Origin: Perkinsus olseni
Lineage: Eukaryota
Direction of reading: 5' to 3'
DNA: 20,000 nucleotides
NCBI GenBank assembly: GCA_013115125.1
Contig: JABANN010000094.1
Location: forward strand, 55,611 to 75,610
Shown here: positions 16,001 to 17,606 of the stretch, piece by piece
Layout of the letters: each line of letters starts with the position of its first letter
How positions within the stretch are numbered: the first letter of the stretch is position 1
The notes under the pieces: model-generated
The model's input: the letters and a program-made list of their open reading frames with translations, nothing else
Told to the model about the DNA's origin: nothing
The model's database searches: none
Made by a program: the position numbers and the translations under genes

Positions 16001-17606
16001 CTATGAGTGGTATCAGTGGAGCGACGAAGTTCGGCAAGAAGGCGAGTTTGTCCAAGTACGTGCCTTTGACGCCGGAGTCCACAGCACAGCTCACCAATGA
16101 CACTGTGTCGGGGGTGGGCCTTGAGCAGGTAGTACCGCACTTCTACAAGGATGTGCTTAATGCTGAGTACGGCGACTTGGGTCAGTCTGGGGCTGATTCG
16201 GCAACCAGTGGCGGTAAGGGCCCTTCGACCATGGCGTCTGAGGTCCCGATTTTCCCGGAGATCCCTCCTCCGTTGAATGACGGGCATGCTCCGACCGAAG
16301 AAGACGTGGCTTGGGTGCAGATAGCCCTTGCCGCGGTGGTTCCTAGCGTGAAGTTGAGTGCCTACCCCAAGCTGGGGGTTATGTGCCCGGGCACGGTTGA
16401 TGTGATTAAGGGCTTCCAGGAGTACCATAGCCTTCCTGTTGATGGAACTATGGATGATCGAACATGGCAGCTGTTGGTGGACTCGTTGGAGTCGAGGAGG
16501 CAGAAGATTGAGGAGAGGGAGGCCAAGAGGGCAGAGGCCAAGTTAAAGGCTAAGATGGTGAGAACTTTGCTGCTTGCGGAATAGAGTTTTTGCGATTTCT
16601 CGCATCGCCTCCGTGATGGGTGTACGATGGCGTTTTCTACGTAGTTCCTTTGCGTATCGTGTGTCTTGGTCAGGAAGCGGAGCGGAAGCGTCAAGCTCGA
16701 CAGGCGGAGTCTGCTAAGGCAATGGACATGATGGAGAAGACGCTGTATAGTTTATCCTCGGGTGGTGCTGCTGCTGCTGCCCCAGCTGCCACCCCCTCAG
16801 CGGCAGCAGCGGCTTGCGCTGGCAGCGGTACTCCTGCGCTGCATCATTCCACGAGCGTGGCGATGCCGTCCCAGTCCCCTCCGTCACAGCCGGTCCAACA
16901 CTCTTCCCCGGCAGTGGACTCGTCAGCAGTAGTTCTTCCCGGCACGCCTCCTCGTCAGAGTGCGGTTGCAGCGGCTCCTGGTGGTGGCGGTAGTAGCAGT
17001 AGCAGCAGTGGTGTGGTGTCGTCACAAGTACCAAGGTCTGGCAGTGTGCCCCCGACGGTCTCTCCGTGGGTGACGGGGGCTGCTCCGCTGTCTCGCACTG
17101 TTAGCTATACTGGAACCCCACCGTCGATGTCTCGGAACTCCTCCCTGCCCAATGTGGCTGGGATACAGCCGCCACAGCAGATAGTAGACGTCTTCCAGTC
17201 CTTGAGAAGGGTCTCGCCGCCATTGTCGGAGACAGGCTCCCAGCAGGGCAGAGCGCCAAGCGCGAGTCATTCACCGCCGGCTGAGATGAGAAGCCTCTAC
17301 TCTGCTCCGGACTCCTACAGCACTACCACTAGCTTGCCTACATCTACGTACCAGCCACCAGCCGTCAATATCCCAGCTGGAGGTCCACCGCAGCGTCCCC
17401 CGTCGGCTCAACAGCATCATCATCCAACGGGGAATCTTGAGCTCAGCAGCGAGACATCATCTGTCCTGGGATCGGTGCCAGAGGCGCCAGTATCCAGTGG
17501 TGCAGGAGGTCAAGTATCGTCTACCACATCAGCGTCGCTTGACGAGCTTCTCACTGCTGCAGCTTCCACTACTACCACTACACAGCCGCAGCAGTCGGAA
17601 CACTAG
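13090..17606 (+). CDS. WNK: WNK (with-no-lysine) family Ser/Thr kinase, 4 exons, about 1434 aa, with CCT-like domain, PGBD-like domain and coiled coil
   Basis: GSGSYKTVY (lysine in the Gly loop), EVAWN in place of VAIK, HRDLKCDNIFING, IGDLGL and GTPEFMAPE. Introns 14625-14675, 15033-15077 and 16558-16673 join four frames (4305 nt total). CCT-like segment FQRINFEYNLDEDTCDSIAEELLENNLV. Stop TAG 17604-17606. Confidence 0.95.
16297..16476 (+). other. Peptidoglycan-binding-like (PG_binding_1/PGBD) domain within the WNK protein
   Basis: EEDVAWVQIALAAVV...LGVMCPGTVDVIKGFQEYHSLPVDGTMDDRTWQLL fits the PGBD pattern DV..lQ..L.....dG.fg..T..av..FQ...gL.vDG.....TW..L. Confidence 0.75.

Follow-up and report, generated by a model that had tools for sequence, protein, structure and literature searches.

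This locus raises two questions: whether a WNK kinase of Perkinsus olseni really carries, far down its chain, a domain with the fold of the peptidoglycan-binding domains (PGBDs) and, if so, what such a domain may be doing on a protein kinase. The window, i.e. the whole 20,000-nucleotide stretch of DNA that was analysed, contains a plus-strand gene of four exons, separated by GT-AG introns of 51, 45 and 116 bases and encoding one open product of 1434 amino acids. Exon 1 (13090..14624) holds the start codon, the kinase domain and a first disordered linker; exon 2 (14676..15032) holds a disordered linker and the start of a CCT-like domain; exon 3 (15078..16557) holds the rest of that domain, a P/S/A/T-rich disordered region, the PGBD-fold domain and the first part of a charged helix; and exon 4 (16674..17606) holds the end of the helix, a P/S-rich disordered tail and the stop codon. 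Four public sequencing runs from four studies, out of 24 listed, were compared over 12900-17800, and all three exon joints were found at the predicted positions in each of the four. The earlier note had joined the kinase exon to exon 3 and had named their separation as a refuting outcome; this outcome did not occur, since single spliced contigs from two studies span both exons. Both of them, X1 record 1 (RNA on record) and X3 record 9 (RNA by guess), begin ahead of the start codon and extend beyond the stop codon, thereby covering kinase exon to last exon, with the three introns absent and nothing else removed. This linkage comes from assembled contigs rather than single molecules, and the gene is single-copy in genome searches: its kinase domain is the sole genome match at E≤1e-30 (a lower bound), and it is the single detected WNK of this Perkinsus genome. 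The window is near-identical to named P. olseni records (100% over the kinase for P0300, 100% over the domain for P0009). In the public P. olseni model P0009, the N-lobe of the kinase is short by about 110 residues, the catalytic Lys among them; because the compared contigs show no such skip, this model looks like an annotation error; the public P. marinus model P0005, which stops a few residues past the position of intron 3, is probably another.

Other genes and candidate genes are found in the window. The WNK gene and a V-ATPase subunit H gene with many introns (10539-12410, minus strand; PF11698, E 1.4e-34; PF03224 at its cut-off) are arranged head to head, with about 700 bases between them. 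Also on the minus strand, a frame at 2523-2921 resembles an archaeo-eukaryotic primase domain, weakly and below the cut-off (PF23162, E 0.0023), and may be a primase-polymerase-like gene, while an RRM-like frame at 4861-5259, below cut-off, and a leucine-rich-repeat frame at 6821-7099 (PF14580, E 8e-9) suggest splicing-related genes. On the plus strand, a long open frame that leaves the window (18939-20000; weak KH_1 match, E 0.017) probably encodes an RNA-binding protein.

The earlier description of the protein as a canonical WNK is borne out. The kinase domain (residues 70-335; 13297..14094, plus strand) scores 192.7 bits with the Pkinase profile, its named relatives are WNKs, and all 15 PDB sequences that match it at E≤1e-50 are WNK1 or WNK3 (human WNK1/WNK3, PDB 4pwn and 5o26, E 4.5e-80). 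It has in common with these the shifted Lys, K88 in strand beta-2 aligning with the beta-2 catalytic Lys of WNK1 (K233); the usual VAIK Lys position is taken by an Asn, where WNK1 has a Cys. DLG (D223-L-G) replaces DFG, as in the human kinases, and the HRD catalytic loop (202-204) and the activation-loop Ser (S238) are intact. Kinase identity reaches 98% with P. chesapeaki and 96% with P. marinus. The likeness to human WNK1/WNK3 extends to a CCT-like domain, a long P/S-rich disordered tail and a helical element near the C-terminus. The CCT-like domain, of the OSR1_C or PF2 type (PF12202; about residues 618-685; 14992..15240, plus strand), is split by intron 2 and scores 25 bits in one search and 22.1 in another for a cut-off of 22.4; the wider region 566-690 is 93% identical to that of P. 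chesapeaki. Linkers consist of P, S, A, T and G to 51-64%, and the C-terminus is long and disordered. No RFxV/I motif was found within the WNK protein. A crude hydropathy scan gave neither a signal peptide nor a membrane segment and no hydrophobic N-terminus, its top window (1.61) being helix 1 of the PGBD, and the protein is thus taken as cytosolic.

The 60-amino-acid segment at 16297-16476 in which the earlier note had seen a PG_binding_1 pattern corresponds to residues 1038-1097, in frame within exon 3, and it does match PF01471: against a cut-off of 23 it scores 40.2 bits (E 4e-10), and positions 3-57 of the 57 in the profile are covered. An exon-by-exon search of the genome, which gives a lower bound, yielded no other PF01471 match, and 20 of 24 aligned family members match the profile at E≤1. 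Those 24 rows, the first being the stretch of P0009 that is letter-identical to window residues 1029-1151, were the input of an AlphaFold2 model with a mean pLDDT of 93.6, helices at 10-23, 40-52 and 63-122 and thus the three-helix PGBD that had been expected; from the single sequence the domain model was weak (pLDDT 65). The modelled domain is slightly longer than the segment, i.e. residues 1030-1100 (16273..16485, plus strand). Compared with 48,161 chains, the good model matched best SleC (Z 9.8, rmsd 2.3, 77 residues) and CtpB (Z 9.8, rmsd 2.2, 73 residues), then SleB (Z 9.0, rmsd 2.0, 68 residues) and gp144 and AP3gp15 (both Z 8.4); for helical proteins a Z under about 13 may be due to a widespread arrangement of helices, but in this case the sequence points the same way as the structure, the alignment profile finding SleC and CtpB by sequence at E 4e-7. 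Cell-wall enzymes, cell-wall binders, CtpB and proMMP-2 make up the whole of the top 15 structural rows; the propeptide of proMMP-2 shows the same fold (Z 6.6) and serves in zymogen control. With the good model, Foldseek put the same proteins first (best E 0.014, none at E≤0.001), and with the weak single-sequence model it returned nothing at E≤0.001. In the ESM Atlas the domain led to bacterial and viral PGBD clusters only, whereas P0308, from the ciliate Climacostomum, led to generic WNK clusters.

The distribution of the domain was studied in a sample of WNKs collected with the kinase domain only, as the best 120 of 7730 matches in one search and the best 120 of 4602 in a second, which used an alveolate-weighted profile; together these gave 182 distinct proteins. 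With a profile of the domain core, carriers scored at least 25.5 bits in round 1 and at least 50 in round 2, the next best score being -1.9, and the domain is present in 44 of the 182. All 44 fall into one 64-member alveolate clade of the kinase tree (support 0.99), whereas none of the 118 WNKs outside it carries the domain; among these 118 are 57 rows of stramenopile type, a mostly fungal clade of 51 rows, a clade of Plasmodiophora type and a few proteins from plants and animals. A more careful tree of 63 of the 182 rows supports the alveolate clade at 100/98 and separates ciliates from dinoflagellates plus perkinsids. Named carriers, several of them transcriptome records, come from three Perkinsus species, Polarella, Effrenium, Durusdinium and Gymnodinium smaydae (two) and, on the ciliate side, from Protocruzia, Stylonychia, Blepharisma and Climacostomum. 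The fusion is common to perkinsids, dinoflagellates and ciliates and not special to Perkinsus; the earlier note had proposed a survey in alveolates, and that other members of the group share the fusion is borne out. Because the profile was made from alveolate sequences and the proteins come from best-120 lists, absence elsewhere holds for this sample only; apicomplexans, chromerids, Tetrahymena and Stentor do not occur by name among the 240 rows of the two lists. A domain-profile search of a large protein database added no new eukaryote, its matches being crowded by tandem-repeat PGBD proteins, and a representative search with the domain gave mostly multi-repeat proteins and six further WNK-type fragments.

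The 20 clade members without the domain are nine from Paramecium (nine of nine records examined), five short perkinsid-like proteins, one partial record and five others, among them P0320, which ends exactly where the domain begins and looks truncated. The short proteins (P0306, P0309, P0311, P0314 and P0324) are environmental WNKs of 494-540 amino acids that end after the CCT-like domain, and their clade is likely a paralogue with secondary loss of the PGBD fold. The fusion is probably as old as the alveolate ancestor. For the 44 domains, set against 50 sampled controls, one common origin is not rejected (p-AU 0.955), which does not amount to proof. A 63-column domain tree cannot name the donor. 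The domain would have come once from a prokaryote or phage gene and been fused to the C-terminus of a WNK in the alveolate ancestor, and the fusion would then have been passed down vertically and lost or dropped in Paramecium and in some paralogues.

Could the association nevertheless be an artefact, due to a profile match by chance, to exons wrongly joined in the gene model or to contaminating bacterial DNA? The domain is short, the best Foldseek E-value was 0.014, and a PDB search with the single sequence gave 0.085 at best. However, the Pfam score lies far over the cut-off, the structure list is headed by PGBD carriers, the contigs are spliced, there are 44 orthologues in a species-like tree, and the PGBD domain shares its exon with a WNK-type CCT-like domain. 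Chance match, mis-joined exons and contamination were ruled out on these grounds, and we regard the probability of an artefact as negligible.

The earlier note had also placed a charged coiled coil directly after the domain. The charged helix is there, but the label of coiled coil is doubtful. In the AlphaFold2 model, helix 3 of the PGBD continues unbroken for about 50 residues (residues 1101-1150; 16486..16751, plus strand), across intron 3, where the contigs support the joint, and ends in a conserved amphipathic Met-rich motif (16704-16745, plus strand). In its first 36 residues, 58% are charged, three are large hydrophobic ones and 13 pairs of opposite charge stand at i+3/i+4; the 34 of 44 carriers with at least 36 post-domain residues have medians of 61% charged residues, 11% hydrophobic residues and 20% best a/d occupancy. 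By the criteria that separate the composition of single alpha-helices from that of coiled coils, the stretch looks more like a single alpha-helix. Eight heterotrich-type ciliate WNKs end 5-16 residues past the domain, so that the helix arm is dispensable there. A homodimer prediction for domain plus helix, in which the alignment was unused, scored 0.00 in two runs and speaks neither for nor against a dimer. Relative to human WNK1/WNK3, then, the window protein differs by a PGBD-fold domain, seen in none of the 118 non-alveolate WNKs examined, by a C-terminal helix that seems to lack a heptad core, by the lack of an RFxV/I motif and in that no SPAK/OSR1-type partner was detected in the genome.

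Does the domain still look like one that binds peptidoglycan? It is strongly conserved: domain and helix are each 96% identical to those of P. chesapeaki, against 98% for the kinase and 43-61% for the three long disordered regions, and identity with two environmental relatives is 35-41% in the domain, 50-58% in the helix and 5-18% in the disordered regions. Core positions of the PGBD (Q/L of helix 1, G, T, FQ, L, G and W) are retained. In its accessible part, one source describes two DGxxGxxT repeats in PGBDs as important for ligand recognition (PMC12547810), and another, likewise available in part, describes Arg6/Asp31/Asp54 as a fingerprint common to AP3gp15, gp144 and a C. acetobutylicum amidase (PMC5674055). 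By alignment, the two fingerprint Asp map to the starts of the repeats; the Arg position was inferred by counting. Neither repeat is intact in the window protein: in the first (16372..16395, plus strand), Leu replaces Asp and Cys1067 replaces the second Gly; the second (16441..16467, plus strand) keeps Asp-Gly and Thr but has Asp for the second Gly, and is followed by a near-invariant Trp1094. The fingerprint positions read Asn/Leu/Asp, i.e. one residue of three (Arg position by counting).

These features were compared with 684 control domain instances having at least 45 of 65 columns filled, from 161 non-WNK matches of the representative and the domain-profile searches; the controls were picked by likeness to the query and are putative binders. 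At least one full repeat occurs in none of 21 perkinsid-like, none of 11 dinoflagellate-like and one of 12 ciliate-like domains, against 376 of the 684 controls. None of the 32 myzozoan domains has the Asp that matches Asp31 of AP3gp15, against 356 of 684 controls. A Cys replaces the repeat-1 Gly in 31 of the 32 myzozoan domains, but in only 4 of the 684 controls and in none of the 12 ciliate domains; this near-fixation suggests new selection rather than decay. Ciliate domains are, in sequence, nearer to the bacterial form: they keep the repeat-1 Asp in 6 of 12 cases and the repeat-2 Asp in 8 of 12, about half have an upstream basic motif of the L/M-R/K-R-G type, PF01471 is matched at E 1e-12 in Climacostomum and 2.5e-12 in Protocruzia, and P0308 has three of three fingerprint residues (Arg by counting). 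The PF01471 domains of SleB, SleC, phiKZ gp144, AP3gp15, SltB2 and EpsA/ExeA have the three-helix fold and core positions of the window domain (Z 8.2-9.8 and rmsd 2.0-2.7 Å for the SleC, SleB, gp144, AP3gp15 and EpsAB chains), but the window domain is single and cytosolic, sits on a eukaryotic kinase, and has its repeats broken, one of three fingerprint residues, Cys for Gly and a helix 3 extended by the 50-residue charged helix.

The reading that we favour, with a probability of roughly 0.6, is that in Perkinsus the domain is a repurposed docking module on an osmotic/chloride-sensing kinase, and not a peptidoglycan sensor; gene, splicing, fold, distribution in the sample and the strong conservation of the module are observed, and whatever concerns ligands and partners we infer from them. 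The protein would be a soluble cytosolic Ser/Thr kinase with the order kinase, disordered region, CCT-like domain, disordered region, PGBD fold, long charged helix and disordered tail. The perkinsid and dinoflagellate domain would no longer bind peptidoglycan; it may instead serve for docking, as a folded head borne by a stiff helical arm of about 9 nm that ends in the amphipathic motif. Head and arm would fill the role of the animal C-terminal coiled coil, and, within the disordered tail, the module would hold the kinase either to itself or to a partner. In animal WNK1, according to the part of a preprint that is available, the disordered tail drives crowding-induced condensates, which C-terminal coiled coils augment and which in turn drive SLC12 transporters (bioRxiv 10.1101/2022.01.10.475707). 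The Perkinsus kinase most likely works as other WNKs do, as a chloride and crowding sensor upstream of SLC12 cotransporters, and two genes for such cation-chloride cotransporters are found on two contigs of the genome (L008, G000:C2652; L009, G000:C582). The docking reading is favoured further by the cytosolic location, by the absence of a full repeat from all 32 myzozoan domains, by the near-fixed Cys, by the conservation of the module in P. chesapeaki and by the use of the fold in CtpB and in the proMMP-2 propeptide. The C-terminal domain of B. subtilis CtpB, a tie for the best structural match, is a precedent for the PGBD fold as a dimerization motif, as stated in the part of the source at hand (PMC3808539). 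However, CtpB and MMP are extracytoplasmic proteases, whereas the window protein is a cytosolic kinase whose dimerization is putative.

Several points tell against the docking reading. The partner or oligomer is putative, the helix arm is absent from the eight heterotrich-type WNKs, and the motif contrast is not decisive, since a full repeat is also missing from 308 of the 684 controls and the second repeats of SleC and CtpB are altered in a similar way. The motif papers, in the parts accessible, argue from conservation and not from mutational proof (PMC12547810, PMC5674055). The Perkinsus domain has kept the repeat-2 Asp and, despite its great age, still passes the Pfam cut-off; some binding of a ligand could account for this. 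As no second CCT-domain (SPAK/OSR1-type) gene was detected in the genome, the animal WNK pathway may be only partly matched there; among minus-strand frames of at least 70 amino acids in the two SLC12 loci, no convincing RFxV/I docking motif was found, the one match being apparently off-frame.

The earlier note had offered two options, glycan or bacterial sensing and a fold repurposed for protein interaction. The second fits Perkinsus better, the protein being cytosolic, the repeat motif eroded and a Cys fixed where controls have Gly; the first fits less well, and mainly in ciliates. That the alveolate WNK is a cytosolic sensor of bacterial walls, its domain still binding peptidoglycan or fragments from food vacuoles or intracellular bacteria, seems to us unlikely as a general account. 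The near-bacterial ciliate domains and the complete fingerprint of P0308 do speak for it, and so does the heterotrich domain, which sits free at the C-terminus of the protein. But the kinase is cytosolic, while polymeric peptidoglycan is in phagosomes or outside the cell, and a full repeat is found in one of the 44 WNK-borne domains only; moreover, the domain is strongly conserved in Perkinsus, a parasite that does not eat bacteria, and is missing from all nine WNKs of Paramecium, which does. Bacterial PknB and PrkC are Ser/Thr kinases with peptidoglycan-sensing external PASTA repeats and thus, like the window protein, combine a kinase and a domain of cell-wall-binding type in one chain, but they are membrane receptors, whereas the window protein, without a membrane segment in the hydropathy scan, belongs to another kinase family and uses another fold. 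Peptidoglycan sensing is most plausible as an ancestral function, kept in bacterivorous ciliates. A more speculative scenario, doubtful in our view, joins these elements: a bacterivorous alveolate ancestor might have grafted a PGBD onto a WNK and so obtained a cytosolic sensor of wall fragments, which was kept in ciliates and retuned to another ligand in perkinsids and dinoflagellates.

The ligand could also be endogenous, such as a glycan, the cortical or alveolar skeleton or another polymer of repeating units, which would place the kinase at the cortex or the contractile vacuole system. The distribution in our sample, which matches Alveolata exactly, is what such a ligand would lead one to expect, PGBDs recognise repeating ligands, according to the part of the source available (PMC12547810), and a long single helix with a head would serve well as a tether; Paramecium, however, has a full alveolate cortex and lacks the domain in all nine records examined, and the alveolate-specific site is itself a putative localization. 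We give this possibility little weight. Less probable still is a role of the perkinsid and dinoflagellate domain as an intramolecular or redox- or metal-sensitive regulator of the kinase via its conserved Cys, loosely like the inhibitory MMP pro-domain. The high frequency of the Cys in myzozoan domains and the fold shared with proMMP-2 would agree with it, but the Cys is absent from all 12 ciliate domains, about 700 mostly disordered residues separate kinase and domain, and the cysteine switch of MMPs is located after the propeptide helices, elsewhere than the Cys of these WNKs.

We found no account of a WNK fused to a peptidoglycan-binding domain in the literature, of which coverage was thin for subscription papers. 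The Stentor kinome preprint, as far as its text is available, counts 10 WNKs and does not contain the word peptidoglycan, although the domain may be tabulated in its Table 3 of extra domains (10.1101/168187); the accessible part of the Tetrahymena genome paper mentions WNK and not peptidoglycan (PMC1557398), and two other papers, available in part, served as background only (PMC4280135, PMC4224354). Automatic annotation already records the domain, with precomputed PF01471 matches on many rows and one JGI name that includes a peptidoglycan-binding domain. This is a real, alveolate-wide WNK variant, apparently undescribed in papers though annotated automatically.

The WNKs of animals and plants have been studied in depth, and their tails have disordered regions, CCT-like domains and coiled coils only. 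A bacterial-type folded domain on a WNK across ciliates, dinoflagellates and perkinsids is therefore a candidate molecular signature of alveolates and an old case of domain capture. The natural series from near-canonical domains in heterotrich ciliates to eroded ones in dinoflagellates may help to understand the loss or change of ligand in PGBD folds. Should peptidoglycan binding hold for the ciliate form, that kinase would be a sensor of bacterial walls in protists, whose means of recognising bacteria are poorly known, and, should the scenario of a grafted wall-fragment sensor be true, such a WNK would couple feeding or infection to the control of ions and volume.
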